DNA of 64,000 bases from the IMG/VR virus record IMGVR_UViG_3300043446_000899, positions 9,159 to 73,158 of that record. The stretch is one strand, 5' to 3'. The position numbers and the translations under genes are program-made. Shown piece after piece: positions 4,939-64,000 of the stretch. Every line of letters starts with the position of its first letter. Positions within the stretch are counted from its first letter, which is position 1. Source of the DNA: a virus. The notes beneath the pieces are model-generated. The model did not search any database. It was not told where the DNA came from and saw nothing but the letters and a program-made list of their open reading frames with translations.

Positions 4939-4940
4939 AG

Positions 4941-44426: not shown

Positions 44427-44834
44427 ATGAAACACACATTTTACAAAGAAAACGGATTATGGTATATTGATTTACCAGAGTTCTTAGAAGCAGGTTTAGG
44501 CACTACAGCTAATTTATTAATGGTAGATGGTGCTGATACATTCTTAGACTATTTATCTAATAATGGTAATAGAGTGTCTATTGAAATGGACGTAAAGCCA
44601 TTTGATGGTCATACACATACATTAAACAAAATTGATATGGGTAAGAACCAATCATTATTAGATGCAATTGGTCATGCACCAGTTGATTACGGTGCGTATT
44701 ACTCTGTACCTGAGCACAACAATCACCATTTGTGGTTGTGTCCTGTAACAGAATATGTATTTGGTGGAAACTATCCAGATAACATTTACATTCAAGTAGT
44801 ACCAAGATTTAACCTAACTAAGAACCCACAATAA
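44427..44834 (+). CDS. hypothetical protein (135 aa)
   Basis: ORF 5 nt after the previous gene. Confidence 0.5.
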   Translation: MKHTFYKENGLWYIDLPEFLEAGLGTTANLLMVDGADTFLDYLSNNGNRVSIEMDVKPFDGHTHTLNKIDMGKNQSLLDAIGHAPVDYGAYYSVPEHNNHHLWLCPVTEYVFGGNYPDNIYIQVVPRFNLTKNPQ

Positions 44835-45305: not shown

Positions 45306-45932
45306 TTGTTATTCATTATTAAAAATACGAATATGTTTATAAGAGCAAAACTAGTGTTTGAATCCTATCTACCTGAAGAACTACAACCAGGTATGTGGTT
45401 TAAACAACAAATCACAGACACAATATATGGTAAAAGATATACATATGATAGAATCTTTCAATTGTTTCACAAACCACAAGACCCAGATGCATATATAGCA
45501 GAAAATGGTTGTCCTGTTAATCCTATCATTGTGTCCATCACAGCTAATGCTGATGCAAGAGCAGAAGTGCTAGCTTATCCTTATCAAATAGGTTGGTGGG
45601 ATGATGGACCTGATTCTGATGAGCTTAGAGATATAGAGCTCAAAGATATCAATACGATATTATCAGACTATGAAGGTGAATTGGATATAGAAGTGGTTGA
45701 TGAAGCTATGGAAGATGATCTAGCTGTTCCTATAATATATATGGACAAGGTAACAATCAGATTACCATGGGATGAAGATGATTACTTGTATGAGCAAGAT
45801 GATTATCCTGAAGACGAAGAAGATTGGGATGACATAGATGATTGGACTCATGATGAACCAGACACAGACAGTGCAGGTTTTACATCAGAAGATAGATGTC
45901 CAAGATATGATTCTGATCATGAGACAGAATAA
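45306..45932 (+). CDS. hypothetical protein (208 aa) with strongly acidic C-terminal half
   Basis: DEDDYLYEQDDYPEDEEDWDDIDDWTHDEPDTD. Confidence 0.5.
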   Translation: MLFIIKNTNMFIRAKLVFESYLPEELQPGMWFKQQITDTIYGKRYTYDRIFQLFHKPQDPDAYIAENGCPVNPIIVSITANADARAEVLAYPYQIGWWDDGPDSDELRDIELKDINTILSDYEGELDIEVVDEAMEDDLAVPIIYMDKVTIRLPWDEDDYLYEQDDYPEDEEDWDDIDDWTHDEPDTDSAGFTSEDRCPRYDSDHETE

Positions 45933-46243: not shown

Positions 46244-46975
46244 ATGAAAATTCAAACTTTAACAAAAAACAGCAAACAGTCATTCTCTTATTTAGCAGGT
46301 ATTAATAGACCTATTAATCCTTCTCAAGTGACTAAATTAGCAAATTCAGTAAACAAGATGGGCATCATTAGACCAGTTGTAATATCTGAGTTAGCATTTA
46401 TTGATGGTAAGAAGAAACCATATATCATTGATGGTCAACACTTATTCAATGCATTGATTAGAAATAATATGGATATTCCATACGTATCAATTGATATAAA
46501 GGATAAAAAAGAGTTAGTAGAGAAGATTGCATTGTTAAATGCATCATCTAAAAACTGGGCAATGGTTGATTATGTAACAGCATGGGCATCATTAGTGCCT
46601 GATTATGTTAAGTTAAATCATTATTTCCAAGTGTATGATTTTGAAATCAGTTTTCTTGCAGGAGTATTATTAACTCTTCCAAGTGCTGATACAGGATCTG
46701 CAGGTAGAAAGATTAAATCAGGTGAGTTCAGAATCTCAAATGAGAAAGAGAATGTACAAATCCTTGATTATGTTACAGACATGTTAAAAGTTGTTCCTAG
46801 AATGAACAGATTTGAGAATAAATATGCTTGTTCAGAGTATGTTAAGTTCTTGAGAGTGACTAAAAACTATAATCACAAGAAGTTCATATCAAATCTAGAG
46901 AAGAACAAGAAACAGTTTGTAATGGCTACACATGAAGAAGGTAAATTGTCTGAATTGTTCACAAAATTAAAATAA
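46244..46975 (+). CDS. ParB-N/DGQHR-like domain protein (243 aa)
   Basis: PYIIDGQHLFNALIRN resembles the ParB/Srx/DndB-type DGQHR core, with the Arg replaced by Leu. Confidence 0.4.
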   Translation: MKIQTLTKNSKQSFSYLAGINRPINPSQVTKLANSVNKMGIIRPVVISELAFIDGKKKPYIIDGQHLFNALIRNNMDIPYVSIDIKDKKELVEKIALLNASSKNWAMVDYVTAWASLVPDYVKLNHYFQVYDFEISFLAGVLLTLPSADTGSAGRKIKSGEFRISNEKENVQILDYVTDMLKVVPRMNRFENKYACSEYVKFLRVTKNYNHKKFISNLEKNKKQFVMATHEEGKLSELFTKLK

Positions 46976-50009: not shown

Positions 50010-51962
50010 ATGAATATACTCATCTATGACATAGAAACCATGCAGGAGCTGTTTCTAGTTTGTATATATAATCCTGAGACACAGCAATGGCATGAATTCC
50101 AGGTGAGTAAGAATACAAACCAGATTGATGCATTTGTTAGGTTTACAGAAGATTACAAAGACTTCTATTGGGTAGGTTATAACAATCTACGCTTTGACAG
50201 TCAAGTAGTTGAGTGGATCATACGCACTCATCAAGATTGGCATGAATTAGGTGCATTAGAAGTAACTGCATTAATAGCTCAGAAAGCTGCAGATGTTATA
50301 CATGATGCTAACTATGATGTATTCCCTGAATATAGAGAGGAATGGTTACACAACAAACAGATAGATTTATTCAGAGTGAACCACTATGATAACAAGAATC
50401 GTAGAGTGAGCCTGAAGAGACTAGAGTTTGAGATGGACCTAGAGAACATAGAAGAGATGCCTATACATCACACCAAGACAAACATGACAGATGAAGAAAT
50501 TCAGCTGACTATTGAGTATTGTCGTAATGATATATATGCAACCTATGAGTTCTACAAAGTAACAACAGGTGATACAGATCATCCATTGTACAAGGGCAAT
50601 AATCAAATAGAGCTCAGACAAGATATTGAAGAAGAGTTTGGTATACCATGTCTTAACTATTCTGATAGTAAGATTGGTGACGAGATGATTAAGAAATATT
50701 ATTGTCAAGAGAAAGGTATACAATATGGTGATCTACCAAAGAAAGGATATTTTCGTAAGGAAGTGAAGGCCAAGAATTGTATAGCTGATTATGTAGCATT
50801 CCAGACACCAGAGCTGCAACAGTTCTTAAAACATGTACAAAAGCAAGTATTTACACTCACTGATGATTTTAAAGAGTCATTAGAATTCTATGATAATGTA
50901 TATACGTTTGCCAAGGGTGGTTTACATACAGAAAACAAACCTAAAATATTTGAAGCTGATGAAGAAACTCTTATTGTGGATTGGGATGTCTCCTCTTATT
51001 ATCCTGCTATTATTATTAACAACAATCGTTACCCTCAGCATTTGGGCCGTGAGTTTCTTAAGGGCTACAAGCAGATGTTTGAGAAAAGATTGGAACTTAA
51101 GCCTCTGGCTAAGAAAGATAAAAAGATTAAAGGTATTGTTGGTGCTCTCAAGCTTGCTGTTAATAGTGTGTACGGTAAATCTAGTGATATGCAGTCATGG
51201 ATCTATGATAGACAACTTACTATGTTTACTACTATCACTGGCGAGCTTAGCTTGCTTATGCTTATTGAAGCTTATGAACTAGCTAGTATACATGTTATAT
51301 CTGCAAATACAGACGGTGTAACTATCTCTGTAAAGCTTACGCATGTAGATAAGATGCATGAGATTAACAAATGGTGGATGGACATCACACAGTATGAACT
51401 AGAACGCACTGACTATTCTAAGATTATCTTCAGCACAGTTAATGACTATTTAGCAATTAAAACAGATGGAGAAATTAAAAAGAAAGGTGATTTTCTCACG
51501 GATTTTGAGCTGCATAAAAATAAGTCTGCTCGTATTGTTCCTATTGCTCTTGATAGATTTTATACAGAAGGTATACCTATTGATGAAACTATACGCAATC
51601 ATAAAAACATTTATGATTTCTGTCTAAGACAGAAGGCTAGTAAAGACTTTCATTATGAAGGTGTAGCTGGTACTAAGAGAACAGTGTACAATAAGCTTAT
51701 TCGTTATTATGTATCCAAAACAGGTGAGAAATTACTAAAAGTAAAGAATCCTGAATGTACTTCTAATGCTGCTGACGTATCTCAAGTGGAAGCAGGTGAA
51801 TGGGTGATGCATGTATGTAATCATCTAACACCAGATCATCCTCTAGATAACATTAACCACGCTTATTATATAGAGCGTGCTGAACGCATAGTTAGTAAGA
51901 TACAGTTTGAAGGTAAGAAACGTAAAATTATTGTTAATCCTAATCAAATGAGTTTATTCTAA
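50010..51962 (+). CDS. family B DNA polymerase with 3'-5' exonuclease (650 aa)
   Basis: ExoI IYDIET, ExoII YNNLRFDSQVV, ExoIII YCRNDIYATYEFY, motif A DWDVSSYYPA, motif B KLAVNSVYGKS, motif C variant ISANTDGVT. Confidence 0.75.
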   Translation: MNILIYDIETMQELFLVCIYNPETQQWHEFQVSKNTNQIDAFVRFTEDYKDFYWVGYNNLRFDSQVVEWIIRTHQDWHELGALEVTALIAQKAADVIHDANYDVFPEYREEWLHNKQIDLFRVNHYDNKNRRVSLKRLEFEMDLENIEEMPIHHTKTNMTDEEIQLTIEYCRNDIYATYEFYKVTTGDTDHPLYKGNNQIELRQDIEEEFGIPCLNYSDSKIGDEMIKKYYCQEKGIQYGDLPKKGYFRKEVKAKNCIADYVAFQTPELQQFLKHVQKQVFTLTDDFKESLEFYDNVYTFAKGGLHTENKPKIFEADEETLIVDWDVSSYYPAIIINNNRYPQHLGREFLKGYKQMFEKRLELKPLAKKDKKIKGIVGALKLAVNSVYGKSSDMQSWIYDRQLTMFTTITGELSLLMLIEAYELASIHVISANTDGVTISVKLTHVDKMHEINKWWMDITQYELERTDYSKIIFSTVNDYLAIKTDGEIKKKGDFLTDFELHKNKSARIVPIALDRFYTEGIPIDETIRNHKNIYDFCLRQKASKDFHYEGVAGTKRTVYNKLIRYYVSKTGEKLLKVKNPECTSNAADVSQVEAGEWVMHVCNHLTPDHPLDNINHAYYIERAERIVSKIQFEGKKRKIIVNPNQMSLF

Positions 51963-53161: not shown

Positions 53162-53401
53162 ATGCAAGGAAGAAAAGTAACAACAAAAGATATAAGAAGT
53201 AACAAGTTACCAAGCAAAAATATATTAAATACTACACTAGTTACACAAGTTGAAGTTATAGAGAACGGAGTTGTTAAATACTATAACTGGGACGGCAGAT
53301 GTAAAGTGTATGCAATGGTTGAAGACACAGGAAAGACATTACGATTATATATAAACCATAAAAATAGAACAGATGAGCAAATTACAGGTGTTGTACTTTA
53401 G
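53162..53401 (+). CDS. hypothetical protein (79 aa from the internal start; track ORF begins at 53129)
   Basis: MQGRKVTTKD.... The internal start avoids overlap with the previous gene. Confidence 0.4.
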   Translation: MQGRKVTTKDIRSNKLPSKNILNTTLVTQVEVIENGVVKYYNWDGRCKVYAMVEDTGKTLRLYINHKNRTDEQITGVVL

Positions 53402-53639
53402 TGCACCATGGTGTGGACCATGTAAAATGTTTAAACCAGCATTCAACGAGACAGTTGAAAAGTTTGATGATATTGATGTACAACAGATTAACGTTGATGA
53501 TAATCAAGAATTATCTAAGGATCATGCAGTTAGGAGTATTCCTACAGTTATAATGATTAAGGATAGTAAGGAAGTATTTAGAAACGTTGGTGTAATGCCA
53601 AAAAGTCAATTAGAATCATTAATCAAAACCCATAAATAA
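53373..53639 (+). CDS. thioredoxin (short-form, 88 aa)
   Basis: WCGPCK active site, cis-Pro motif SIPTVIMI, size and C-terminal helix. Confidence 0.75.
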   Translation: MSKLQVLYFSAPWCGPCKMFKPAFNETVEKFDDIDVQQINVDDNQELSKDHAVRSIPTVIMIKDSKEVFRNVGVMPKSQLESLIKTHK

Positions 53640-53640
53640 C

Positions 53641-53874
53641 ATGCCAGATATTTCAATGTGCAAAGGTGGTTCTTGTCCATTAAGACTGAACTGCCACAGA
53701 TATACAGCAACAGCTGAGCCATTAGGTCAATCATATTTTCAAGATCCTCCATATAAAATGGACTTTATGTTTAGTGAGCATTTTAACAGTTTTGGTGTTG
53801 TGACCACAGCATGTCCTTTCTTTTGGAACAATAAAGACTATGAAAATGAAAGACCAAAGTTTGAAAATAAATGA
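53641..53874 (+). CDS. Cys-rich small protein (77 aa)
   Basis: CKGGSCPLRLNCHRY...ACPFF. Confidence 0.4.
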   Translation: MPDISMCKGGSCPLRLNCHRYTATAEPLGQSYFQDPPYKMDFMFSEHFNSFGVVTTACPFFWNNKDYENERPKFENK

Positions 53875-54049
53875 GGATTGGGAGCGTGAAGCACTCAAAG
53901 ATTTCATATATTTGCATGAGGAAAAGCAGATAATTGCTGAAGAAATCCAACAGGAAATTAACAGAAAACCTGCTAAAATAACAGTTGTTGACAAAGACAA
54001 TATATTAGACAAACAACATGAATATCACAGTAACACATTACCATTTTGA
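53840..54049 (+). CDS. hypothetical protein (69 aa)
   Basis: ORF overlapping both neighbours by ~30 nt. Confidence 0.35.
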   Translation: MKMKDQSLKINEDWEREALKDFIYLHEEKQIIAEEIQQEINRKPAKITVVDKDNILDKQHEYHSNTLPF

Positions 54050-54644
54050 GGAGATTATTAAAGCTGGCTATACGCTAGATATGATTTATTTCCTTAAACT
54101 TGTGGAAGAAGGTGTTGATGTGGAAAGTATGTGCTCAGATCCAAAACTACAAATGCTTTGCCAGACAGTGAGAAGAAAGGGGCTATTATCAGAATCTTTC
54201 AAGCTCACTGTCATTGGTAAATCTGTATTAGGATTTCTAGATGAAGATGGTACACCAGAAACTAAATTAGTTAAGCAGAAAAAGAACGCTAATGATTTTG
54301 ATGAGTGGTGGAAAGCTTATCCAGGTACTGACACATTCACACACAAAGGACAATCTTTCACAGGTACTAGAAGCATGCGTGTAAAGAAAGATGACTGTAA
54401 GGTCAAGCTTTACAACATTCTATCTGAAGGTGAATACACTATCAAAGAAATGATAGCAGCTTTAGAATACGAAGTGCTTCAAAAGAAAGAGAATTCTGTA
54501 AAGACAAAGACCAATAGGTTGACATTTATGCAGAATAGTCTCACGTATCTAAATCAAAGAACATTTGAACCCTTCATTGAATTGATTAGAGAAGGTAAAA
54601 CGGTGGTTGAAGAACCAGTAGTAAGAGGAGGCACAGATATATGA
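54018..54644 (+). CDS. hypothetical protein (208 aa)
   Basis: ORF. Confidence 0.5.
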   Translation: MNITVTHYHFEEIIKAGYTLDMIYFLKLVEEGVDVESMCSDPKLQMLCQTVRRKGLLSESFKLTVIGKSVLGFLDEDGTPETKLVKQKKNANDFDEWWKAYPGTDTFTHKGQSFTGTRSMRVKKDDCKVKLYNILSEGEYTIKEMIAALEYEVLQKKENSVKTKTNRLTFMQNSLTYLNQRTFEPFIELIREGKTVVEEPVVRGGTDI

Positions 54645-55492
54645 AAATTATCAGACAAAGAACCAAAACTCTTGTTACAAGAGATAATGGTAGAAGTTCA
54701 GATGCTGTCACTCCAAACTTTGTATATGGTTGCTTAGGTGGATGTATGTCTTCTTATTGTTATGTAGGTAGATACAATAATGATAAAGTGTATCTAAATG
54801 AGAACACAGATGACATAATACAATCTATGGAACTATGGCTAGTTAAACAACCAGATGTAAAGATTCCTAATCAATGTGATGATAAATACTACACGCTTGA
54901 TATAGGCTGTAGTACAGATGTACCATTGATGTCCAAGCATTACAATTGGCAAGTGGTATTTGATTTCTTTAATACTCATCCAAAAGCCAAAAGCACCTTT
55001 GCCACTAAGTATCCTACAATGTTTAGACCAGAGAGATACACTCTGAACAAAGACAAGAATAGGATTAGAGTGAGTTTGATGCCTCAGAAGTATTCTGATA
55101 TATTAGAACCTAACACAGACTCTATATCAGATCGCATACAATCTATACCAAATCTGCAGAATTATATGGAAGTGCATATAAACTATAGCCCTATTATATA
55201 TGAAGAGGGATGGTTAGATGAGTATAGAAAGCTATTTCAAGAGGTGAAGGACGCAGGTATTGATGTTAAATGTGAATGTATATTCTTAACACACAATGTT
55301 CATCAGCATGCACGTAACAGTGATGCTGTACAAGAGTTGTTGTGGAAGCCAGATATACAGGAAGCAAAAGATTCAAGCTATGCTGCAGATAATATACGCT
55401 ATAAATGGCAATTGAAAAGAAATATGGTAGAACAGTTCAAAGAGTTGTATTCAGAATTCTTTGATGTATCAAATATACGTTACATATTTTAA
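54641..55492 (+). CDS. hypothetical protein with N-terminal Cys cluster (283 aa)
   Basis: FVYGCLGGCMSSYCYVGRY (a C-x3-C-x4-C arrangement). Not the canonical radical-SAM spacing. Confidence 0.5.
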   Translation: MKIIRQRTKTLVTRDNGRSSDAVTPNFVYGCLGGCMSSYCYVGRYNNDKVYLNENTDDIIQSMELWLVKQPDVKIPNQCDDKYYTLDIGCSTDVPLMSKHYNWQVVFDFFNTHPKAKSTFATKYPTMFRPERYTLNKDKNRIRVSLMPQKYSDILEPNTDSISDRIQSIPNLQNYMEVHINYSPIIYEEGWLDEYRKLFQEVKDAGIDVKCECIFLTHNVHQHARNSDAVQELLWKPDIQEAKDSSYAADNIRYKWQLKRNMVEQFKELYSEFFDVSNIRYIF

Positions 55493-55501
55493 ACAAAAAT
55501 T

Positions 55502-56566
55502 ATGAGTTTTGAAGATTTAAAGAAAGCAGTTCAAGAAGGTTTAGACGGTAGGAATAATGGTATTCCTATGGGCTTTAACAGATTGAACAGATATATAGGC
55601 ATTAGAAAGTCTATGTATACATTAGTGGGCGGACTAACTGGTTCTGGTAAAACATCATTCATTGATGATGCATATGTCCTTAATCCATTTGATTGGTATA
55701 TAAGCAAGGAGAATAAAACCAACATTAAGTTAAAGATTATCTATAGATCCATGGAGCGTAGCAGAACATATAAGTTTGCTAAGTGGGTGAGTCGTAAGAT
55801 ATTTCTTGATCAAGGTGTAATCATTCCTGTTAATAAACTATTAGGTTGGACAGACAAGATGACTCATGATGAACATGATTTGTTTCTGATGTATGAAGAC
55901 TACATGGGAGAGATGAATGAAGTGATGACTATCATAGATGGACCAGAGAATGCTGTAGGTATTGCTAAAGATTTAAAGACTCATGCTTTGGCTAATGGTA
56001 CAATAGAACAAATGGATCAATACAATAAGAAATACATTCCTAATAATGAGAATGAAATAACTATTGTTGTTATTGATCATATTGGTCTATTGAAAGTTAC
56101 CAAAGACCAACCAACTAAAAAGCAAGCTATTGATAAGATGTCTGATGAGCTGAGATATGCTCGTGACATGTATGGATATAGTCCTGTAGTGGTTAGTCAG
56201 TTTAACCGTGACATTTCAAATCAAATGAGATTGAAGAATGGTGACGTTGAACCAAGACTAGAGGATTTTAAAGAATCAAGTTCTACTCAGGATGATGCTG
56301 ATGTTGTATTAGCATTGTTTGACCCTATGAGATATAAAGTGGCAGATCCATCTGGTTATGATTTAAACAGACTAGTAGATGATTATGGTGCAAAGTATTT
56401 CAGATCACTGAGACTAATTAAGAATAGTTACGGTGAGGATGATGTAAGAATAGGCTTAGGTTTCCTAGGTCAAATTGGTATGTTTAAAGAACTACCAAGA
56501 CAGAGAGATATGACTGAAGATGATTATAGGTCTGTATTAAATAAAACGTATTTCCTAAACAAATAA
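55502..56566 (+). CDS. DnaB-family replicative helicase (RecA-fold domain, 354 aa)
   Basis: Walker A GGLTGSGKTSF, Walker B IVVIDHIGLL, H3-like SQFNR. Confidence 0.65.
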   Translation: MSFEDLKKAVQEGLDGRNNGIPMGFNRLNRYIGIRKSMYTLVGGLTGSGKTSFIDDAYVLNPFDWYISKENKTNIKLKIIYRSMERSRTYKFAKWVSRKIFLDQGVIIPVNKLLGWTDKMTHDEHDLFLMYEDYMGEMNEVMTIIDGPENAVGIAKDLKTHALANGTIEQMDQYNKKYIPNNENEITIVVIDHIGLLKVTKDQPTKKQAIDKMSDELRYARDMYGYSPVVVSQFNRDISNQMRLKNGDVEPRLEDFKESSSTQDDADVVLALFDPMRYKVADPSGYDLNRLVDDYGAKYFRSLRLIKNSYGEDDVRIGLGFLGQIGMFKELPRQRDMTEDDYRSVLNKTYFLNK

Positions 56567-56738: not shown

Positions 56739-57839
56739 ATGGCAACCCTCCAGAAGAACCAGAGTCCTACTTTAAGGAATAAAAGACAGCAAGAATTTGC
56801 TGATATATGGTTGAATCATGGAATGTTTGGTATCCTTAATCTATGTCCTAGATTTGGTAAGATATACACTACCATCAATATTCTAGAGAAATTAGATAAG
56901 AACATTAATATCCTGATAGCATATCCTGACTTAAAGATCAAAGCATCTTGGGAAGAGGATTTCAAAGCTAGAAAGTACAAGAATCCTAATATCACTTATA
57001 CTACGCACTTATCCATTAAAAAGCACACAGGTGGCTTTTATGACTTAGTTGTGCTTGATGAGATACATTTACTCTCTGAAGCACAAATAGAGGCTGTAAA
57101 AGAGCTTACGTGCACAAAGGTGCTTGGTTTAACTGGTACATTGTCTAGCTGGACTGAGAAAACACTCAGAGAAGAGCTTGACTTAACTGTATTAGCTGAA
57201 TATCCTATTGAACAGGCTATTGAAGAAGGTGTTATTGTAGACTATCAAATCACCGTGGTTACCACTCCTTTGGATGATGTAATAAAACGTAACTATAAGG
57301 GTAAATGGAAGACTGAGAAGAAGCAATTTGATGCATATGGATGGGTAATAGATCAAATGGAAAGACAGGGTAAGGCAACTATGTTCTTACGTCTAGCCAG
57401 AATGAGAATAATCCAGAACAGTGTGGCCAAATTGAATCTTACCAAAAGGATTCTAGATAAGTACAAGGATGAGCGTATTTTGGTGTTCTGTGGTGTAACA
57501 GCTATAGCAGATGAACTAGGTATACCTGTATATCATAGCAAAGCAGGAGACAAACAAGTCTTTGAAGACTTTGCTTCTGGTAAGGGTAATCACCTGGCTG
57601 TTGTAAAGATTGGAAACACTGGTGTAACATATAAACCACTCAACCGTGTGATTATCAATTACTTTGATAGTAATGGTGAAAACCTAGCCCAAAAGATTAA
57701 TAGATGTATGGCTATGGAATACAACAATCCAGAGAAGAAAGCACAAATATATATAGTGTGCTCTACAGAAGATGTAGAAAAGAAATGGCTCAACAAAGCG
57801 TTAGAGTTCTTTGACAAAAACAAAATTAAATACGTATGA
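56739..57839 (+). CDS. SF2 (DExH) helicase-like protein (366 aa)
   Basis: GK motif CPRFGKI, LVVLDEIHLL, LTGTL, and C-terminal helicase-like motifs. Confidence 0.5.
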   Translation: MATLQKNQSPTLRNKRQQEFADIWLNHGMFGILNLCPRFGKIYTTINILEKLDKNINILIAYPDLKIKASWEEDFKARKYKNPNITYTTHLSIKKHTGGFYDLVVLDEIHLLSEAQIEAVKELTCTKVLGLTGTLSSWTEKTLREELDLTVLAEYPIEQAIEEGVIVDYQITVVTTPLDDVIKRNYKGKWKTEKKQFDAYGWVIDQMERQGKATMFLRLARMRIIQNSVAKLNLTKRILDKYKDERILVFCGVTAIADELGIPVYHSKAGDKQVFEDFASGKGNHLAVVKIGNTGVTYKPLNRVIINYFDSNGENLAQKINRCMAMEYNNPEKKAQIYIVCSTEDVEKKWLNKALEFFDKNKIKYV

Positions 57840-58052: not shown

Positions 58053-58724
58053 ATGGCAAGTAAATTAATTGGGATTGTGGGTCCCACTGGAACAGGAAAG
58101 TCCACATCAATCAAACATTTAGATCCAAAAGAGACGTACATCATTAACGTTGCTAAGAAAGAATTACCTTTCAAAGGAGCAGAGAAGTTGTACAATTTGG
58201 AGAACAAGAATTACAAAGAGGTAGATGATGCTGTAGAAATCACAAAGTTATTACGAGTGATTTCAGAGAAAGCTCCTCACATCAAGAACATCATTATTGA
58301 AGACTCTAATTACATTATGGGTTTCAATATTGTATCTAAAGCTGACCAAGTTGGTTTTACTAAGTTTAGCTTAATGGCTAAGGATATGGTAGAACTATTC
58401 AGAGAAGCTCGTAAGTTACGTGATGACTTGAAGATATTCTATTTTACACACCCAGAGACTATTGAAGATTCTGGTGAGATTATAGGATATAAGATTAAAA
58501 CCGCTGGTAAGTTAATTGACAATCAAATTGTATTAGAGGGATTATTAACAATCTGCTTGTATACACATGTTGATGAGTCAAAAGATGGTACTGCTACCTA
58601 TAGTTTTGTAACTAACAGATTCAAGAAGTACCCAGCTAAGAGTCCAGATGGTATGTTTGCTGACATCAAGATTCCAAATAATTTACAGACAGTAGTAGAC
58701 ACAATTGACGAGTATTATAATTAA
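58053..58724 (+). CDS. P-loop NTPase (223 aa), replication/recombination-associated ATPase
   Basis: Walker A GIVGPTGTGKST, Walker B-like NIIIEDSNY. Confidence 0.55.
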   Translation: MASKLIGIVGPTGTGKSTSIKHLDPKETYIINVAKKELPFKGAEKLYNLENKNYKEVDDAVEITKLLRVISEKAPHIKNIIIEDSNYIMGFNIVSKADQVGFTKFSLMAKDMVELFREARKLRDDLKIFYFTHPETIEDSGEIIGYKIKTAGKLIDNQIVLEGLLTICLYTHVDESKDGTATYSFVTNRFKKYPAKSPDGMFADIKIPNNLQTVVDTIDEYYN

Positions 58725-58747: not shown

Positions 58748-59623
58748 ATGAGTAACATTGGAGGCAAAAAAAGAGAACAACAACAGTTTGATGGAAAAGA
58801 CTTTGCTAAAAAAGTAGGCTTATTTGAAGCTGAAGTAGTAGCAATCAATCCAACAACAGAAGAGTACAAGGACATTTTAGGAATGGACTTGAAAGAAGAC
58901 AGTAAAGCAACTGAGTATCTAAGTAAGAACCAAGATGGTAATACTATCTTACGTGTAGATGTTTGGTTGGAAGAAATCAAGAACAAAGATAAGTTCAAGG
59001 TGACTTTCTTCTTAGAAAACAAAGAGAAAGAGAACAAGGATGGTACCAAGAAGCAGTATATCAATTCTGTAGGTATGTGTACTTGGTCTGATGATGAAAA
59101 CAACTTACCTTCATGGTTCTCTGGTAGAGAATACCGTGTAGCATATGTAGGTGAAGAGGATTTATATAACTTCTTACGTACATGGTTAGGTAACTTGGAT
59201 TTACGTGATGCTGAATCTACATTACAGATTGAGTGGTCTAAATTGATGAAGGGTAACACCAAAGATTTAAGAGCTCAAGTTGGTGGTGAATTTGCTACGA
59301 ATGTAGTAGCATTAGCAGCTATCAAAACTGTAGAGAAAGAAGATGGTCCTAAAGAGTATCAAACAATTTACAATAAAGCATTCTTACCAGCTTATGCATT
59401 AAAGAACTTTAGATTGATCAATTATGGTGATGCAGATGTTCAAAAGACATTGCGTGCTAAGAAGTCTAAAGAGTTAAAACCTCATGAGCGTTTTGTAATC
59501 AATGTAACAGGTGAATATGGTTGTAGAGATTTCTATACACTAAAAGACTTGAAAGATTATAATGCTGATGATAATTTAGTAGCATCTGATAAGGTGATTG
59601 CTGAAGACGATAGTGATTATTAA
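58748..59623 (+). CDS. hypothetical protein (291 aa) with acidic C-terminal tail; candidate ssDNA-binding protein
   Basis: Ends ...ASDKVIAEDDSDY. Lies in the replication module and is followed by a terminator. The SSB call is positional and tail-based only. Confidence 0.4.
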   Translation: MSNIGGKKREQQQFDGKDFAKKVGLFEAEVVAINPTTEEYKDILGMDLKEDSKATEYLSKNQDGNTILRVDVWLEEIKNKDKFKVTFFLENKEKENKDGTKKQYINSVGMCTWSDDENNLPSWFSGREYRVAYVGEEDLYNFLRTWLGNLDLRDAESTLQIEWSKLMKGNTKDLRAQVGGEFATNVVALAAIKTVEKEDGPKEYQTIYNKAFLPAYALKNFRLINYGDADVQKTLRAKKSKELKPHERFVINVTGEYGCRDFYTLKDLKDYNADDNLVASDKVIAEDDSDY

Positions 59624-59685: not shown

Positions 59686-60690
59686 ATGATTAAAGGAGTA
59701 AAAAAGACAAAATTGTCTATAGAAGCAGTGTTGAGCAAGATATCTGAGTATGATATATTTAGATTCTATATGCCAGATCATGATTGGAAACTTAATAGGG
59801 TTACATATTCTCCTTTTAGGAAAGAGAATAATCCATCGTTTGTTATTGGTAATAAACTTGGTTACATATCATTCATAGACTTTGCTGATACAAGCTTGAG
59901 AGGTGACTGTTTTAACTTTGTACAAAAGCTGTATAATTTACCAAACATGATAGATGTACTAAAACTCATAGATAAAGACTTTGGGTTGGGCATCAGTACA
60001 GGTAAATCAACAGAAGAGTATAAGAAGATAGTATCTGAATACAAGCAGCCTGAGATAGAGAAGAGATATTCTATCATCCAGGTGAGTACCAGGAAGTTTA
60101 CTAATAAGGAGCTTGAGTATTGGAATCAGTATCATATAGATATCCAAGACCTTAGAGATAATAATATATATGCAGTGAAAAACGTGTTCTTGAACAAGAG
60201 CAAGTTTGCCATCCCAGATAATGAATTTACATTTGGTTATCTGTATGAGGGACAGTATTGGAAGATTTATAGACCTTTTGGAGACAAGAAGCATAAATGG
60301 ATTCCTAATAATGTTCCTATTACATGCATGGATGGTAAAGAAGATATAGTTAACTGCAGTGTAGCATTTATCAACAAGAGTAAGAAGGACTATATGGTGA
60401 TGAAGAAAGTATTCCCATGTAGCTGTGCTGTACAGAATGAAGGTATAGGATGTTTCTCACATGAGAATGTAGAATATCTAAAAGCTAACTCTGACAGACA
60501 GATATTAAGTTTTGATAGTGATGTTACTGGTGTAACCAATTCTCAACAGATAACTAAGTTATTTGATTTTGGTTATGCTAACGTCCCACGTAAGTATTTA
60601 GCTGAAGGGATAAAAGATTGGGCAGATCTTGCAAAAGTCCATGGATTAGAAACAATTGAACAGTATTTAAAACAAAAACAGTTATTATAA
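59686..60690 (+). CDS. DnaG-like primase (zinc-binding-domain homologue lacking all four Zn ligands, plus TOPRIM-like DxD)
   Basis: YSPFRKENNPSFVIGNKLGYISFIDFADTSLRGDCFNFV aligns with DnaG [35 protein letters not shown]; the C, H, C and C positions are replaced. Later ILSFDSDVTGV resembles the TOPRIM LCFDGDRAG. Confidence 0.5.
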   Translation: MIKGVKKTKLSIEAVLSKISEYDIFRFYMPDHDWKLNRVTYSPFRKENNPSFVIGNKLGYISFIDFADTSLRGDCFNFVQKLYNLPNMIDVLKLIDKDFGLGISTGKSTEEYKKIVSEYKQPEIEKRYSIIQVSTRKFTNKELEYWNQYHIDIQDLRDNNIYAVKNVFLNKSKFAIPDNEFTFGYLYEGQYWKIYRPFGDKKHKWIPNNVPITCMDGKEDIVNCSVAFINKSKKDYMVMKKVFPCSCAVQNEGIGCFSHENVEYLKANSDRQILSFDSDVTGVTNSQQITKLFDFGYANVPRKYLAEGIKDWADLAKVHGLETIEQYLKQKQLL

Positions 60691-61487
60691 TGGAAATTTA
60701 TAACACAACAAAAGAGTTAATTCTCAACGCACCAGTTCCTGCACAGACAAGAACTTATAAGCCTGTTTCACATGGTCAATTAGTAGACCTTACATTAGAT
60801 GGTATTTTGAAAGCTGGTTTCATATTAGATAAAGAAACATATTCAGCAGCTGCAGATGGTCAAATTGCTAATGGTAGATTCTCTATCAGAAACGTAGCAG
60901 ATAGTGAGATGCAATTACAGATTGGTTGGCAGAATAGCTACAACAAGCAACTTACATTAAAGTTTGCTATTGGTACACGCATATTAGTATGTTCTAATGG
61001 TTGTGTGTCTGGTGATTATGGTGCATTCAAGAAGAAACACGTTGGTGAGATTCAATCATTCACACCACAGGCTATTGGAGATTACATCAAGACAGCTGCA
61101 GATTCATTCAAGTTAATGCAAACTCAAAGAGAAGCAATGAAGCAAGTGGAAATCACTAAGCGTACAAAAGCTGAGCTAATTGGTAGAATGATTATTGAAG
61201 AGCAGTTTATTCAGTCTACACAGCTGAATATCATCAGCAGAGAGTTAAAAGCTCCTACGCATGATTACGGTGCTCCAGATAGTTTATGGGAGTTGTACAA
61301 TTATACAACATTTGCTATGAAGGAAGTACATCCAGGATTATGGATGGAAAACCATATTAGTGCACATAAATTCTTTGTTGACGCTACAGGAACATTAATG
61401 ACTTCTACAGGAGCATCAGCAGAACAAATCATGTCTGTTAGTGTAGAAACTGAAGAAGAACATTTTAGACAATTATCAATATTTTAA
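60690..61487 (+). CDS. hypothetical protein (265 aa) with a VCSNG motif (resembles phage/plasmid DUF932-type proteins)
   Basis: WQNSYNKQLTLKFAIGTRILVCSNGCV. The family assignment is from memory only. Confidence 0.35.
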   Translation: MEIYNTTKELILNAPVPAQTRTYKPVSHGQLVDLTLDGILKAGFILDKETYSAAADGQIANGRFSIRNVADSEMQLQIGWQNSYNKQLTLKFAIGTRILVCSNGCVSGDYGAFKKKHVGEIQSFTPQAIGDYIKTAADSFKLMQTQREAMKQVEITKRTKAELIGRMIIEEQFIQSTQLNIISRELKAPTHDYGAPDSLWELYNYTTFAMKEVHPGLWMENHISAHKFFVDATGTLMTSTGASAEQIMSVSVETEEEHFRQLSIF

Positions 61488-61488
61488 T

Positions 61489-62205
61489 ATGAATTGGGAA
61501 AAATTTAAAGATCAGTTTCATGAGAGTTGGCACTTGAAGATGAAACCGTTTATTGAGAGCGAAGCTTGTGATAACATCTATAAATTTCTTAAGTCAGAGA
61601 GTCAGAGGGGCAAGAAAATTGCTCCTCTTTCTTCTAATGTCTATAGATGTTTTAAAGAGACCTCACTAGATGAGCTAAAAGTTGTTATAGTAGGTATGGC
61701 TCCATATCATACACTAAAACAGGGCTCTCCTGTAGCAGACGGATTACTAATGGGTTGTTCTACCACTGGTGTATTACAGCCATCATTAGAACAGTTTTAC
61801 AATGCTATTGAGAGAGAAGTGTATAATGGACTATGTCTTCATTGTGAGAAACCTGCAGATGTTAGCTATCTAGCTCATCAGGGTGTATTGATGTTTAATG
61901 CATCACTAACCACTGAGATAAACAAAGCAGGCTCTCATTTAGAGATATGGGAACCATTCACTAAATATGTACTAGAAGAGATAATATCTCCAACCATGGT
62001 GCCTATAGTATTCCTAGGTAAGGATGCAGCTAAATATGCTAGATATACAAGTCCTTTTGCATATTCATTTGTAACAACACATCCTGCGTCAGCTAGCTAT
62101 AAGAACACAGAATGGGAGTCTGGTGATGTATTCAGAATGGTTAACAAAGTAATTAAAGACAACAATAATTTTCAAATTGAATGGTTAGATGGTACACCAT
62201 TTTAA
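61489..62205 (+). CDS. uracil-DNA glycosylase family-1 homologue with catalytic Asp and intercalating Leu substituted (probable pseudo-enzyme or altered function)
   Basis: KVVIVGMAPYH vs Ung KVVILGQDPYH. QGVLMFNASLT vs QGVLLLNTVLT. HPASAS vs HPSPLS. Overall co-linear alignment with E. coli Ung. Confidence 0.65.
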   Translation: MNWEKFKDQFHESWHLKMKPFIESEACDNIYKFLKSESQRGKKIAPLSSNVYRCFKETSLDELKVVIVGMAPYHTLKQGSPVADGLLMGCSTTGVLQPSLEQFYNAIEREVYNGLCLHCEKPADVSYLAHQGVLMFNASLTTEINKAGSHLEIWEPFTKYVLEEIISPTMVPIVFLGKDAAKYARYTSPFAYSFVTTHPASASYKNTEWESGDVFRMVNKVIKDNNNFQIEWLDGTPF

Positions 62206-62217
62206 ACAAAAACAATT

Positions 62218-62577
62218 ATGTATACAGTTAAACACGGTGGAGATGTCCAAAAAGGAGATCTAATAGCAATTGCTAATGGTAATGATTTTAGTATTGGTAT
62301 TTATTATGGACAAGGTAGAGGCACAGTTCAATATTTTATGCCCCACGGAGTGATAAGCTCTAGAAATTGGTGGGAACAAGCACAAACAGATAGTGGATAT
62401 GACAGTTATAAAAAACCTTGGGCATTAAATAGAATATGGAAATGTTACATAAATTCTCCAAGAGACACCAGGATTATGAAATTAAACAGAGAAAACATTA
62501 CAGATCCAAAAGAAATAGAAACAATAGAAAAAGCAAAAGAAATATTACAAGAATTTAAAATTGAAGTAAACTTTTAA
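62218..62577 (+). CDS. hypothetical protein (119 aa)
   Basis: ORF. Confidence 0.45.
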   Translation: MYTVKHGGDVQKGDLIAIANGNDFSIGIYYGQGRGTVQYFMPHGVISSRNWWEQAQTDSGYDSYKKPWALNRIWKCYINSPRDTRIMKLNRENITDPKEIETIEKAKEILQEFKIEVNF

Positions 62578-62580
62578 TTA

Positions 62581-64000
62581 TGATCCTAGAAAAACAAACA
62601 GAAGCACACATCCTCCAAGAAGGAGAATCACAGGACACTGTGAAAATGTCACTAGACTTAGATTCTGCTCAAGTATTGATGCAGATGTTAAGTAAGAATC
62701 TCTATTCAGATTCAATAGGCTCTACTATCAGAGAATGTGCATCTAATGCACTAGATAGTCACAGAAGAGCTGGGAGTGACAAGCCTATCATTGTTTCATT
62801 TAAGAGAAACAACCAGGCAGATACATATGAATTTGCTGTTGAAGACTTTGGTATTGGTTTAGATGCAGATGATGTAGTTAACATTATCAGCAAGTACGGT
62901 AAATCAACCAAGCGTGACAGTAATACGGAGTTAGGTATGATGGGTTTAGGTTTCAAAGCCCCACTAGCTTACAGTTCTAGCTTTTATTTTGTAGCTAGAA
63001 AGAATGGTATGGAACGTAAGTACATGATGTATGAAGGTGAAGATACTAATAGTATTGACCTTTTATATGAGAAGCCAACTACAGAAGGTAATGGTGTAAA
63101 GGTGATTGTACCTGTAAACTATTATGATAGATACAACTTCACTCAGAAGATTAAAGAGCAATTAGCTTATTTTGAGAATGTTTACTTTGATGTAGATCAA
63201 TCTATTGGTCACTCTGTATCTAATGATTTTGTAATCTATAGAGCTGAACACTTTCAGTTCTCTAGTATGGCAACTAATAACAGCATGCACTTATGTTTGG
63301 ACAATGTTAGTTATCCAATTGACTGGGAGAAACTTGGTATTGATAGAATCAATATTAAGATAGCACTACGCTTTAGTCTCAGTGATGGATTGTTTCCTAC
63401 ACCAAATAGAGAGGCTATCAGATATACACAAGAAGCTAAGCAAGTTATCCTTAAGAAGATAGCTCAGGTAGCAGATGTATTCATGGAGAAGTTCAATGAG
63501 TCAATCTCTGATAACGCTAACATTGATGCTGTTATGAGTTTCTATGGAGAGAGATACAGATATCTACCAAGCTTTTATAGAAAAGATGAAGATAAAGTTC
63601 AGATTGATGAGCTTATCAAGCATGCTACAATTCCTATGAAGCAGCCTAAAATGGAAGGTATAGAGTTATTAGATCTACAAAGAATGGCTGAGAAGAATAA
63701 AGAATATATATTGTCTGAATATCAAATCAAATATAGATATCAGGGAAATAGATTCAACAATGCCAAAAACTATTGGACTACTAACTTGAGACTTCAGGAC
63801 TTGAATTCTTATAATTCTGGTAAAGTTTATGTGTTCTCTGATAGATTGACTAAAACTAAGCAGGATTACATGAGAAGTTTGCTTGGAGATAACAGTAAAT
63901 GTCACTTATTTGTAAAGAAAGATAAGCCTTTCACACTAATGAATGGTGAAGAAATTGATTACAATAAGTATTATCATTCTGTATTAGGTCTTAAGAACTA
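62581..64000 (+). CDS. HSP90/HtpG-like GHKL (Bergerat-fold) ATPase, N-terminal 473 aa; gene continues past window end
   Basis: Motif I LYSDSIGSTIRECASNALDS (HSP90: [22 protein letters not shown]). Motif II VEDFGIGLD. IISKYGKST (HSP90 IAKSGTKAF). Motif III GMMGLGFKAPLAYSS (GQFGVGFYSAFLVA). No stop before 64000. Confidence 0.6.

Follow-up and report, generated by a model that had tools for sequence, protein, structure and literature searches.

The 64,000-nucleotide stretch of viral DNA analysed here (hereafter the window) encodes a protein that resembles uracil-DNA glycosylases (UDGs) of the Ung type, except that the motif which normally carries the catalytic Asp reads GMAPYH. A sequence-only reading of this gene had described a family-1 UDG homologue lacking both the catalytic Asp and the intercalating Leu, and had proposed that the product is a uracil- or abasic-site-binding pseudo-enzyme, a polymerase accessory factor comparable to poxvirus D4, or a decoy against host UDG-dependent restriction of uracil-containing DNA. 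The locus thus raises the question of whether such a protein is a repair enzyme at all and, if it is not, what it does for the phage.

Family membership and active-site residues

The Pfam superfamily model for UDGs (PF03167) recognised the UDG-like protein with 32.5 bits against a cutoff of 24.3; no NCBIfam Ung equivalog cutoff was reached, the scores being 100.2 bits for TIGR00628 (cutoff 185.75) and 118.6 bits for NF003592 (cutoff 162). Searching the PDB with phmmer returned Ung and UNG structures at E values from 2.7e-16 to 1e-9, together with vaccinia D4 and mpox E4 at approximately 1e-3, the latter matches covering only the C-terminal half of the protein (residues 131-235). A profile built from 141 family sequences aligned with the PDB Ungs end to end (positions 15-240, E = 1e-50), the gqdPY columns coinciding, and matched D4 and E4 at 1e-9 to 1e-11. 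The AlphaFold2 model of the UDG-like protein had a pLDDT of 96.9, falling to 75 in its last block, and a pTM of 0.92, and the top 50 Foldseek matches of this model in the PDB were all family-1 UNGs, the best of them DNA-bound human UNG (TM 0.81); human UNG L272A on abasic DNA (2ssp) was also among these structural neighbours. The protein is therefore unambiguously a member of family 1 by both sequence and structure, and the co-linear homology claimed by the sequence-only reading, which had suggested structure prediction as a check, holds. UDG families 4 and 5, which are active despite carrying Ala at the equivalent motif-A position (GEAPG and GLAPA, respectively), belong to the same superfamily but not to family 1. 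The same is true of UdgX, a uracil-DNA binding protein (PMC4787834).

In three HMMER alignments the query 'vgmapyh' lies beneath 'lgqdpyh', and a MAFFT alignment with the E. coli, human and vaccinia sequences likewise places Ala71 on the Asp column, so that the proposed replacement of GQDPYH by GMAPYH stands. The sequence-only reading had left room for a different acidic residue at the catalytic position; in the alignment of the 141-sequence profile with the PDB Ungs, no alternative acidic residue fell on that column. Relative to human UNG, the protein carries Met70 for Gln144, Ala71 for Asp145 (Cys in most relatives), Asp84 for His154, Met88 for Phe158, Lys178 for Ser247 and Ala202 for Leu272, the last within a motif B that reads HPASAS for HPSPLS, as had been noted. 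Features shared with Ung and UNG are the Pro, Tyr and His of motif A (Pro146 = Pro72, Tyr147 = Tyr73, His148 = His74), the Ser of the Pro-rich loop (Ser169 = Ser99), the Asn of GVLLLN (Asn204 = Asn137) and the His-Pro of motif B (His268 = His198), the His being a second catalytic residue of Ung besides Asp. The side chains that recognise uracil are thus kept (Tyr73, Asn137, His198 and the hydrophobic Met88), including the Tyr, Asn and His that the earlier reading had listed as retained, and the loops that grip the DNA backbone are kept in part (Q97-P98-S99 and G177-K178).

Several residues were considered as substitutes for the missing Asp. Asp84, within the ADG motif, was rejected as it occurs in Asp-containing and Asp-less classes alike. 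E108 is the one acidic position with a strong class association, being more frequent among the Asp-less proteins; it aligns with a non-catalytic Ser at a helix end in human UNG. Cys71, the residue found in most close relatives, was rejected as an essential nucleophile or metal ligand because 8 of 84 clade members have Ala instead, with selection unchanged, and Ser, Ala or Gly is found there elsewhere in the family, while Cys90 is common to all classes of family representatives.

Conservation and repeated loss of the catalytic Asp

None of the 120 closest homologues has an acidic residue at the Asp column, and within the clade of 84 sequences to which the window protein belongs position 71 is Cys in 76, Ala in 8 and acidic in none. 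The remainder of the active site is held nearly constant in this clade: G69, P72, Y73, H74, D84 and N137 are invariant, H198-P-A-S-A is invariant except in one gapped sequence, and position 88, the equivalent of Phe158, is M, L or F in 84/84. The median dN/dS is 0.19, with values of 0.10-0.18 for the window gene against its nearest relatives. Judged from these sequence comparisons, the gene is not decaying, and the Asp-less state is fixed under strong purifying selection.

The wider family comprises 1,297 proteins at E<=1e-5 in a word-seeded search, or 6,159 cluster representatives at E<=0.001 when canonical UDGs are included. Among 141 phage representatives the Asp column holds D or E in 73, C, S or A in 51 and another residue in 17, and D, E, C, S, A, G, N, T, P, K and V all occur at position 71, making it the most variable active-site position across the family. 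The C/S/A class retains N137 in 49/51, Y73 in 49/51 and H198 in 46/51, whereas the remaining class has H198 in only 6/17 and nevertheless keeps the fold-core residues W154, W232, G177 and H150; in all, some 20 representatives without His198 and motif B are still intact, so full-length proteins with fully dead active sites persist in the phage family. Approximately 20 changes of Asp-column class were counted on a crude NJ tree, and the nearest neighbour falls into a different class for 41/141 sequences, some of these pairs being 50-53% identical. Across these diverse phage relatives, alignment and tree indicate repeated loss of the acidic residue, accompanied in some lineages by that of the His. 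Where D is replaced by C, S or A, position 74 tends to be His and position 75 Thr, His74 being retained in 34/51 of the C/S/A class versus 5/73 of the Asp/Glu class. One relative consists of a NADAR domain fused to an Asp-less UDG-like domain.

The missing Leu has a different distribution. Ala occupies the Leu position in 93/141 phage representatives, and a small residue is common there family-wide, including in members with an intact GQDPYP and in crAss001 and DAC15, whose motif B reads HPAYYAR. Loss of the Leu is thus ancestral to the phage family and not specific to the Asp-less proteins, and it is consequently weak evidence on activity: the sequence-only reading was right about the loss itself, but its argument from the Leu carries little weight.

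Among annotated phages, megablast of the 58-64 kb region returned no match and all protein matches were below 32% identity. The Asp is kept in the matches from crAss001, DAC15, cr111_1, PhiCrAssBcn2, FpV4, bajarodcaudo virus 1 and Dulem virus 41; the one exception among those read at the motifs is gp053 of Cellulophaga phage phi14:2, which has GKEPYR and no motif-B His, and for the Asp-less clade the annotated phages offered no host system in culture. The proteins of the Crassvirales and Flavobacterium phages (crAss001 gp74, DAC15 gp86, cr111_1 and FpV4) belong to the same phage-type UDG subfamily as the window protein, with ADG or ATG in place of AHG, an LTxE motif and a motif B of the form HPA(Y/S)xA(R/Y), and their genes likewise lie among those for replication or nucleotide metabolism in crAss-like genomes, but they carry GQDPYP with Asp and are 27-32% identical to the window protein. 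UDG has been listed among the genes of crAss-like phages without comment on the catalytic residues (Yutin et al. 2021), and we found no earlier description of Asp-less phage family-1 UDGs in the literature.

The replication module and the C-terminal tip

The genes around the UDG-like gene follow the order PolB, DnaB, helicase, Sak4-like, p291, primase, DUF932, UDG-like and rIIA-like (Table 1). Contigs with the exact protein were only 1.4-1.8 kb long, and the wider gene context was read from relatives. Synteny of the module is conserved in 56-79 related loci, and in 36/56 relatives with enough flank PolB is found upstream of the UDG-like gene at a distance of approximately 10 kb. The UDG-like gene thus has a fixed place in a conserved PolB replication module, although PolB is not adjacent to it, as the sequence-only reading had it, but 9.5 kb upstream in the window. 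No A20-like bridging protein could be recognised, the neighbours DUF932, p119 and p291 having no informative matches; p291, a candidate SSB (a protein that binds single-stranded DNA) by its tail and its position beside the Sak4-like gene, matched nothing in Pfam, PHROG, NCBIfam or the PDB sequences and gave an unusable single-sequence model (pLDDT 35.6). Among the + strand early and middle genes scanned in the window, and over 20 kb of downstream sequence in relatives, there was no second, canonical UDG.

Table 1. Coordinates of the UDG-like gene, its motifs and the surrounding replication module in the window.
Feature	Position	Strand	Description
Divergent family-B DNA polymerase (PolB)	50010..51962	+	phrog_1252 E=2e-139; weak PolB NCBIfam matches; PolB motifs read in sequence
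69-aa protein ending ...NTLPF	53840..54049	+	second PF-tipped protein of the module; 27/29 homologues end LPF
DnaB-like replicative helicase	55502..56566	+	DnaB in 56/56 related loci
Second helicase (ResIII / Helicase_C type)	56739..57839	+	
Sak4-like ATPase / ssDNA annealing protein	58053..58724	+	phrog_2872 E=3e-51
p291, 291 aa	58748..59623	+	acidic C-terminal tail, aromatic end (...AEDDSDY); candidate SSB
DNA primase	59686..60690	+	phrog_12622 E=4e-34; upstream of the UDG-like gene in 79/83 loci
DUF932 protein	60690..61487	+	directly upstream, stop one base before the ATG of the UDG-like ORF; adjoins in 56/79 loci
UDG-like gene	61489..62205	+	238 aa + stop; family-1 UDG fold without catalytic Asp
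Motif A GMAPYH (G69-M70-A71-P72-Y73-H74)	61693..61710	+	GQDPYH in Ung; A71 (GCT) in the catalytic Asp column
Asn137	61897..61899	+	human Asn204 (uracil O4/N3 recognition); invariant in clade
Motif B HPASASY (H198-P-A-S-A-S-Y204)	62080..62100	+	HPSPLS in Ung; His kept, Leu to Ala, Tyr at His+6
C-terminal tip L233-D-G-T-P-F238-COOH	62185..62202	+	SSB-Ct-like terminal Pro-Phe; lower-confidence, flexible tail
119-aa protein (p119)	62218..62577	+	directly downstream of the UDG-like gene; no informative match
rIIA-like GHKL ATPase	62580..64000	+	continues past the window end; in 63/69 loci

A new observation of this analysis is that the UDG-like protein ends in Pro-Phe, in a tip that resembles the DDD[IL]PF tip of bacterial SSB. 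A PF terminus is present in 72/84 clade members and in 69/141 representatives (49%), against 0.3% expected from composition, and only 2/73 window genes and 0/94 control ORFs end in this way. The tails of the representatives are 0-45 residues long and variable in sequence. A tail is more frequent in the non-acidic class than in the acidic class (64/68 versus 47/73; Fisher p=1e-5, with kinship ignored), but as a PF tail also occurs in 28/73 Asp-containing relatives it is by itself no sign of lost catalysis. Position -3 is L in 28, V in 17, C in 7 and T in 6 family members, and positions -6 to -3 hold a mean of 1.0 acidic residues; many tails read D/E-x-LPF, near the bacterial consensus D-D-D-I/L-P-F, while the window tip LDGTPF is weakly acidic, with a single Asp, and has Thr at -3 where SSB has Ile or Leu. 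Neither E. coli Ung nor the human UNG catalytic domain has such a tail or is encoded in a phage replication module, and the tip is missing from the proteins of crAss001, DAC15, cr111_1 and FpV4, whereas that of the uncultured Dulem virus 41 ends ...GLPF.

The SSB tip serves as a hub for recruitment to the fork, with Ung and DnaE in its interactome (PMC3000357), and the NDYPPF tip of the phage HK620 SSB is required to engage Sak4 (PMC5928155). With these tips the UDG-like protein shares the terminal Pro-Phe-COOH, a flexible and often acidic tail of variable length, and membership of the replication proteins (PMC3000357, PMC5872125, PMC5928155). It differs in that SSB has an OB fold and not a UDG fold, and in that Ung in the cell carries no such tip and is instead a client of SSB's.

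Possible roles at the replication fork

The sequence evidence taken together suggests that the UDG-like protein is probably a DNA-binding part of the replication machinery and not a normal repair enzyme. As a more specific reading, for which we see an even chance, it would be a UDG-fold subunit, analogous to poxvirus D4, that is tethered to the replisome, binds uracil and cleaves it barely or not at all. A family-1 repair fold would here have been repurposed as part of the PolB replication apparatus of the phage: the protein would still bind DNA and probably flip out and hold uracil, with cleavage that would be extremely slow or nil, and its PF tip would plug into a pocket on a replisome partner and keep the protein at the fork, as the bacterial SSB tip does. 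Candidate partners are the polymerase, the primase, the Sak4-like ATPase and host SSB-interacting proteins. At the fork it would serve as a DNA-binding subunit of an architectural or processivity type, perhaps also sensing uracil, with the single-stranded template being spared abasic sites. The D4-like accessory role named in the sequence-only reading is thus supported by comparative and circumstantial evidence, namely the fixed loss of the Asp, the repeated losses across the phage family, the synteny of the module and the PF tip; its decoy option is disfavoured, and its argument from the Leu is weak.

Two groups of viral proteins provide parallels. Poxvirus D4/E4, a subunit of the D4-A20-E9 polymerase holoenzyme, is likewise a viral UDG fold encoded with a family-B polymerase, and the vaccinia D4 motif B (HPAARDR) begins HPA and has no Leu, as in the UDG-like protein. 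The Tyr, Arg or His found at His+6 in the phage family lies as many residues from the His as does vaccinia Arg187, mutation of which abolishes processivity but not glycosylase activity (PMC3946371), and the essential part that D4 plays in replication does not depend on its catalytic site (PMC2630940). D4 nevertheless keeps Asp68 and His181, is an active glycosylase and has no PF tip, and its sequence likeness to the UDG-like protein is marginal, far weaker than that of cellular Ungs. The herpesvirus UNGs (UL2, BKRF3 and ORF46) share the family-1 fold and are structural elements of the replisome that bind polymerase and processivity factor without the catalytic residues (bioRxiv 10.1101/2023.05.19.541466; PMC5934625), as MHV68 vUNG does with its viral partners (bioRxiv 10.1101/2023.05.19.541466), but they retain full catalytic motifs and activity, and their non-catalytic role was revealed by engineered mutants and not by natural loss. 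The phage lineage would have gone one step further than both by discarding the catalytic residue.

Conservation of His198 and of the entire uracil pocket counts against a pure binder, as it fits an enzyme equally well, and the co-variation of His74 with loss of the Asp could reflect a substitute water-activating group. It is conceivable, if rather unlikely, that the protein is still a working glycosylase for uracil or a related pyrimidine, in which His198 stabilises the leaving group and the water is placed by His74, by Cys or Ser71 in relatives, or by the backbone; such an enzyme would be slower than Ung, yet fast enough for a phage whose own dUTPase also keeps dUTP in check. Asp-to-Asn mutants of Ung keep a slow activity. 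Within the clade the pocket and His198 hardly vary, and 90-96% of the C/S/A class keep them; the His74/Thr75 co-variation is suggestive of a Cys/Ser-His pair, and human UNG L272A with abasic DNA indicates that losing the Leu does not in itself abolish the chemistry. A dUTPase (PF00692, E=5e-22) lies approximately 11 kb downstream of the UDG-like gene in close relatives, and its pairing with a UDG is the classic viral arrangement for avoiding uracil. Against these points, position 71 is more variable than would be usual for a catalytic residue, and the exchange of Cys71 for Ala in 8/84 clade members with no visible relaxation of selection shows that the Cys is not essential; representatives without His198 and motif B remain intact, and there is no alternative acid on the catalytic column, E108 being at a helix end opposite a non-catalytic Ser.

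A distinctly unlikely elaboration of the tethered-subunit reading is that the non-cleaving, PF-tethered protein acts in trans as a 'read-ahead' sensor that captures template uracil ahead of the phage PolB and leaves no abasic sites in single-stranded DNA, as a functional counterpart of the uracil pocket built into archaeal PolB (PMC2241895). There is also a slim chance that the UDG fold is a scaffold that displays PF-COOH and competes with or hijacks the host SSB interactome of repair, restart and recombination enzymes during infection, with DNA or uracil binding secondary. Conservation of the tip on tails of variable length, the approach of many tails to the SSB consensus (PMC3000357) and the LPF end of the module's 69-residue protein would suit such a mimic, but a mere scaffold would not be expected to keep the uracil pocket essentially invariant, and the window tip has one acidic residue. 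The least probable role, to which we give very little credence, is that of a decoy or shield which hides phage DNA with uracil or another modification from host restriction of the UDG type. A uracil pocket kept without the catalytic Asp would suit a shield, and the NADAR fusion links the fold to DNA base modification. However, dUTPase is present in 60/65 related loci, 38 of which hold both genes, which is the opposite of what uracil-DNA phages need and disfavours a decoy for uracilated DNA; neither the + strand module of the window nor 20 kb of downstream sequence in relatives yielded any gene for thymidylate modification or dUMP hydroxymethylase, which together with the dUTPase also disfavours a uracil-DNA or hypermodified genome; and no PADLOC defence model was matched, so a role in defence or anti-defence was set aside.

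If the UDG-like protein is the replisome-tethered subunit proposed here, this phage lineage would be a natural experiment for a non-catalytic replisome UDG fold, which elsewhere has been shown by engineered D4 and herpesvirus mutants. To our knowledge, almost nothing is known experimentally about the assembly of crAss-related PolB replisomes, and the PF tip, if it is a true docking motif, would provide a testable handle on it. Should the read-ahead sensor prove correct, phages would repeatedly have recruited a repair enzyme as a subunit of the replisome, a course parallel to that of poxviruses and herpesviruses. Members of this large family are as a rule annotated 'uracil-DNA glycosylase', although the catalytic Asp, lost many times over, is dispensable in it; a phage 'UDG' annotation should not be taken as evidence of uracil repair capacity.

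Fold and active site of the UDG-like protein

The protein encoded by the UDG-like gene is clearly a family-1 UDG homologue. It scores 32.5 bits against the Pfam UDG model (cutoff 24.3), and a phmmer search of PDB sequences returned approximately 45 Ung/UNG sequences with E-values from 2.7e-16 to 1e-5, and poxvirus D4/E4 at E ~1e-3. An AlphaFold2 model was generated using an alignment of 141 representatives of the wider family as input (pLDDT 96.9, pTM 0.92), and the best 50 Foldseek matches to it in the PDB were family-1 UNGs throughout, including DNA-bound human UNG with a TM of 0.81. HMMER, MAFFT and the family profile each aligned Ala71 with the catalytic Asp, Met70 with the Gln and Ala202 with the intercalating Leu, while Tyr73, Asn137 and His198 correspond to human UNG Tyr147, Asn204 and His268; the profile also matched Coxiella Ung at E=1e-50 with its gqdPY column in register. 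The sequence-only reading, in which Asp, Gln and Leu are replaced by Ala, Met and Ala and the Tyr, Asn and His are kept, was therefore correct, and profile alignment brought no other acidic residue into the catalytic column, where all three methods put Ala71. The Leu is indeed absent, but this says little about inactivation because it is commonly missing across the phage subfamily as a whole, Asp-containing members included, and crAss001 gp74 and DAC15 gp86 read GQDPYP...HPAYYAR. By fold and sequence the protein belongs to the family-1 branch of the UDG superfamily; as it fails both the curated Ung equivalog thresholds and catalytic motif A (GQDPYH in Ung), it should not be filed functionally as a uracil-DNA glycosylase, the name assigned by JGI. 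The PHROGs entry for its family, phrog_12143, is listed as 'unknown function'.

Variation at the catalytic position

A homologue search with the UDG-like protein recovered 1,297 sequences at E<=1e-5. Among the 120 closest (67-100% identical), motif A reads GMCPYH in 99, GMAPYH in 15 and GFCPYH in 6, and none has an Asp at the catalytic position. In the clade set of 84 sequences, taken from 83 related loci plus the window, 76 have Cys at position 71 and 8 have Ala, and Cys is thus dispensable. G69, P72, Y73, H74, D84 and N137 are invariant, as is H198-P-A-S-A except in one gapped sequence, and the median pairwise dN/dS (Nei-Gojobori) is 0.19 over the clade, with values of 0.10-0.18 between the window and its nearest relatives. 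The invariant pocket and low dN/dS indicate that the Asp-less protein is under strong purifying selection. The gene is accordingly not in decay.

An exhaustive search over representatives clustered at 50% identity yielded 6,159 matches at E<=0.001, of which 138 reached E<=1e-30. Asp or Glu occupies the catalytic position in 73 of the 141 full-length representatives (retaining N137 in 71, H198 in 69 and Y73 in all 73), Cys, Ser or Ala, the class of the window, in 51 (49, 46 and 49, respectively), and G, N, T, P, K or V in 17 (13, 6 and 14). Members of this last class have often lost motif B (HPSPLS in Ung) entirely, yet none is truncated on that account: they remain full-length, and their fold core (W154, W232, G177 and H150) is intact. 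A crude NJ tree with parsimony gave approximately 20 state changes at the catalytic position, and the nearest neighbour falls in a different class for 41 of the 141, as in the pairs P0168 (GQDPYH) and P0177 (GDAPYS), at 53% identity, and P0124 (FMDPYN) and P0026 (GMCPYH), at 50%. As position 71 is the most variable of an otherwise conserved site, it is unlikely, on these alignments, to be essential to the common function of the family. Loss of the acidic residue co-varies with His74 (34/51 versus 5/73) and Thr75, giving [CSA]PYHT versus DPYP in the 141-sequence alignment, so that water may perhaps be activated by another group; the covariation could stem from a replacement catalytic pair, from structural coupling or from common ancestry.

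The representative search also recovered a NADAR domain fused to an Asp-less UDG-like domain (P0137; GLSPYH) and a GIY-YIG endonuclease domain ahead of a GMCPYH UDG-like domain (P0139), and a 723-aa Marseillevirus 'NADAR domain protein' (BFVD match) likewise has a UDG fold. In the cultured crAss-like phage phi14:2 of Cellulophaga, a tractable isolate, gp053 (L002 5980-6690; KC821624.1 27660-28370) is annotated 'uracil-DNA glycosylase' and has GKEPYR as motif A. Its UDG active site is degenerate, and it lacks the catalytic His since EDPIQ stands in place of the HP of motif B.

The C-terminal tip and the replication module

The UDG-like protein ends in Pro-Phe-COOH, a feature absent from the first reading. 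A PF ending is found in 72 of the 84 clade sequences (including loci L009-L091) and 69 of the 141 representatives (49% versus 0.3% expected from composition), with [LMVIT]PW in 13 further representatives. The tails that carry it across the family are 0-45 residues long and otherwise unrelated in sequence, and that of the window protein is modelled less confidently than the rest (last block pLDDT 75); no such tail is present on E. coli Ung or on the catalytic domain of human UNG. Only 2 of 73 window genes end in PF, versus 0 of 94 control ORFs; the second encodes the 69-aa protein p69. This protein of the same module has an LPF end in 27 of 29 homologues, and homologues of p291, a candidate SSB, have a terminal aromatic residue after an acidic run in 72 of 73 cases; among the module proteins checked, the primase, DnaB, helicase and Sak4-like proteins have no such tips. 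A conserved PF on variable tails is the pattern that short docking motifs show. Two known tips are similar: that of bacterial SSB, D-D-D-I/L-P-F, through which a dozen fork proteins including Ung and DnaE are recruited (PMC3000357; PMC5872125), and that of the phage HK620 SSB, NDYPPF, needed to engage Sak4, whose genes usually adjoin an ssb gene (PMC5928155). The tail is present in 64 of 68 non-acidic representatives versus 47 of 73 acidic ones (Fisher p=1e-5, uncorrected for phylogeny); as it is shared with Asp-containing proteins, the distribution suggests that tethering came first and catalysis was lost afterwards. Within the incomplete literature coverage searched, we found no account of phage family-1 UDGs that lack the Asp, or of the PF tips on them.

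Features of the window discussed here
Feature	Coordinates	Strand	Observation
UDG-like gene	61489-62205	+	238 aa; ATG 1 base past the upstream gene's stop codon
PF tip	62185-62202	+	residues 233-238, ...LDGTPF-COOH
PolB (family-B DNA polymerase)	50010-51962	+	
p69	53840-54049	+	ends ...NTLPF
p291	58748-59623	+	adjoins Sak4-like gene; ends ...AEDDSDY, acidic run and aromatic residue
SPL-like radical-SAM	54641-55492	+	NCBIfam TIGR03886 E=1.5e-61, below cutoff; Pfam SPL E=7e-11
Thioredoxin, phage-encoded	53373-53639	+	early region; WCGPC read in sequence; positional homologue in related locus L009 has thioredoxin Pfam matches
ParB-N-like protein	46244-46975	+	early region; weak, E=1e-3
DUF6717 protein	44427-44834	+	early region; E=8e-24
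Acidic 208-aa protein	45306-45932	+	early region
Giant late ORF	1-4944	-	>1,648 codons, runs past window start

The window, with a G+C content of 35%, is assigned on sequence grounds to a crAss-related phage; its MCP, portal and terminase match crAss-type PHROGs, and the terminase is closest to those of Leptolyngbya phage Lbo-JY46 (40.6% identical) and Cellulophaga phi17:2 (33.5%). The UDG-like gene lies in a plus-strand module that runs PolB, p69, a 208-aa protein, the SPL-like gene, a DnaB-like helicase, a second helicase, a Sak4-like ATPase, p291, primase, DUF932, the UDG-like gene, p119 and an rIIA-like ATPase. PolB, previously described as adjacent, is 9.5 kb upstream. Module order is kept among relatives, for primase in 79/83 loci and for DnaB in 56/56 with enough flank, with DUF932 directly upstream of the UDG-like gene in 56/79 and the rIIA-like gene in 63/69. 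Downstream in close relatives are an HNH endonuclease, ribonucleotide reductase, RecA and dUTPase (PF00692, E=5e-22). In locus L126 (12185-16041, plus strand), on the same contig as locus L015, the genes past that for ribonucleotide reductase encode RecA (PF00154, E=8e-82), dUTPase and a glycosyltransferase of Fringe-like type (PF02434, E=3e-7), which may act on the cell surface or on DNA.

The SPL-like gene, inserted in the module, occurs in only 1 of 56 related loci and is thus an accessory gene of this phage; its product may be a UV-damage repair enzyme. The acidic early-region protein, 41% Asp/Glu over its last 80 residues, has an extremely acidic C-terminal half (e.g. DEDDYLYEQDDYPEDEEDWDDIDDW) and no match in the family searches; anti-restriction or inhibitor proteins that mimic DNA typically have this composition. 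Further giant late proteins of 1,497, 1,092, 899 and 856 aa are encoded, as is typical of crAss-like phages.

Possible roles at the replication fork

A decoy or shield for uracilated DNA against host UDG, as had been proposed, is disfavoured: of the 65 loci with enough flank, 60 encode a dUTPase, 38 loci carrying it together with an Asp-less UDG-like gene, and uracil-DNA is improbable in a phage that lowers its dUTP. Defence-system models gave no match, and we regard the shield as very improbable, behind both the glycosylase and the fork-subunit readings. The main rival is a glycosylase that works slowly or by another catalytic route: the uracil pocket and His198 are intact, the His74 covariation is compatible with it, Ung Asp-to-Asn mutants keep slow activity, and UDG families 4 and 5 work with Ala at the position equivalent to the family-1 Asp. 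We consider this a tentative, rather unlikely alternative. An SSB-tip mimic that hijacks host factors is improbable, ranking below the glycosylase and the fork subunit.

We favour, with roughly even confidence, a DNA-binding and probably uracil-binding subunit of UDG fold that is held at the fork and cleaves very slowly or not at all. It is established that the protein has this fold, keeps the uracil pocket and some of the loops that grip DNA, lacks the water-activating carboxylate, carries a conserved PF tip and evolves under purifying selection, and that its gene is a fixed member of the replication module. By analogy, there is strong precedent for a non-catalytic replisome UDG: vaccinia D4 has an essential replication role that does not depend on its catalytic site (PMC2630940), the Arg187Val change in D4 abolishes processivity and spares glycosylase activity (PMC3946371), and MHV68 vUNG without catalytic residues still binds the viral polymerase and processivity factor (bioRxiv 10.1101/2023.05.19.541466). 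The proposed way of working resembles that of D4 and the herpesvirus UNGs, although sequence searches revealed no specific relationship to D4 and, unlike these proteins, the UDG-like protein has lost the Asp naturally. It would bind DNA, and probably also flipped-out uracil, with cleavage very slow or absent, and the PF tip would hold it at the fork, where it may act as an architectural or processivity-type subunit, or a uracil sensor, of the PolB replisome. A plausible selective rationale is that an active UDG tethered at the fork would make abasic sites in the single-stranded template.
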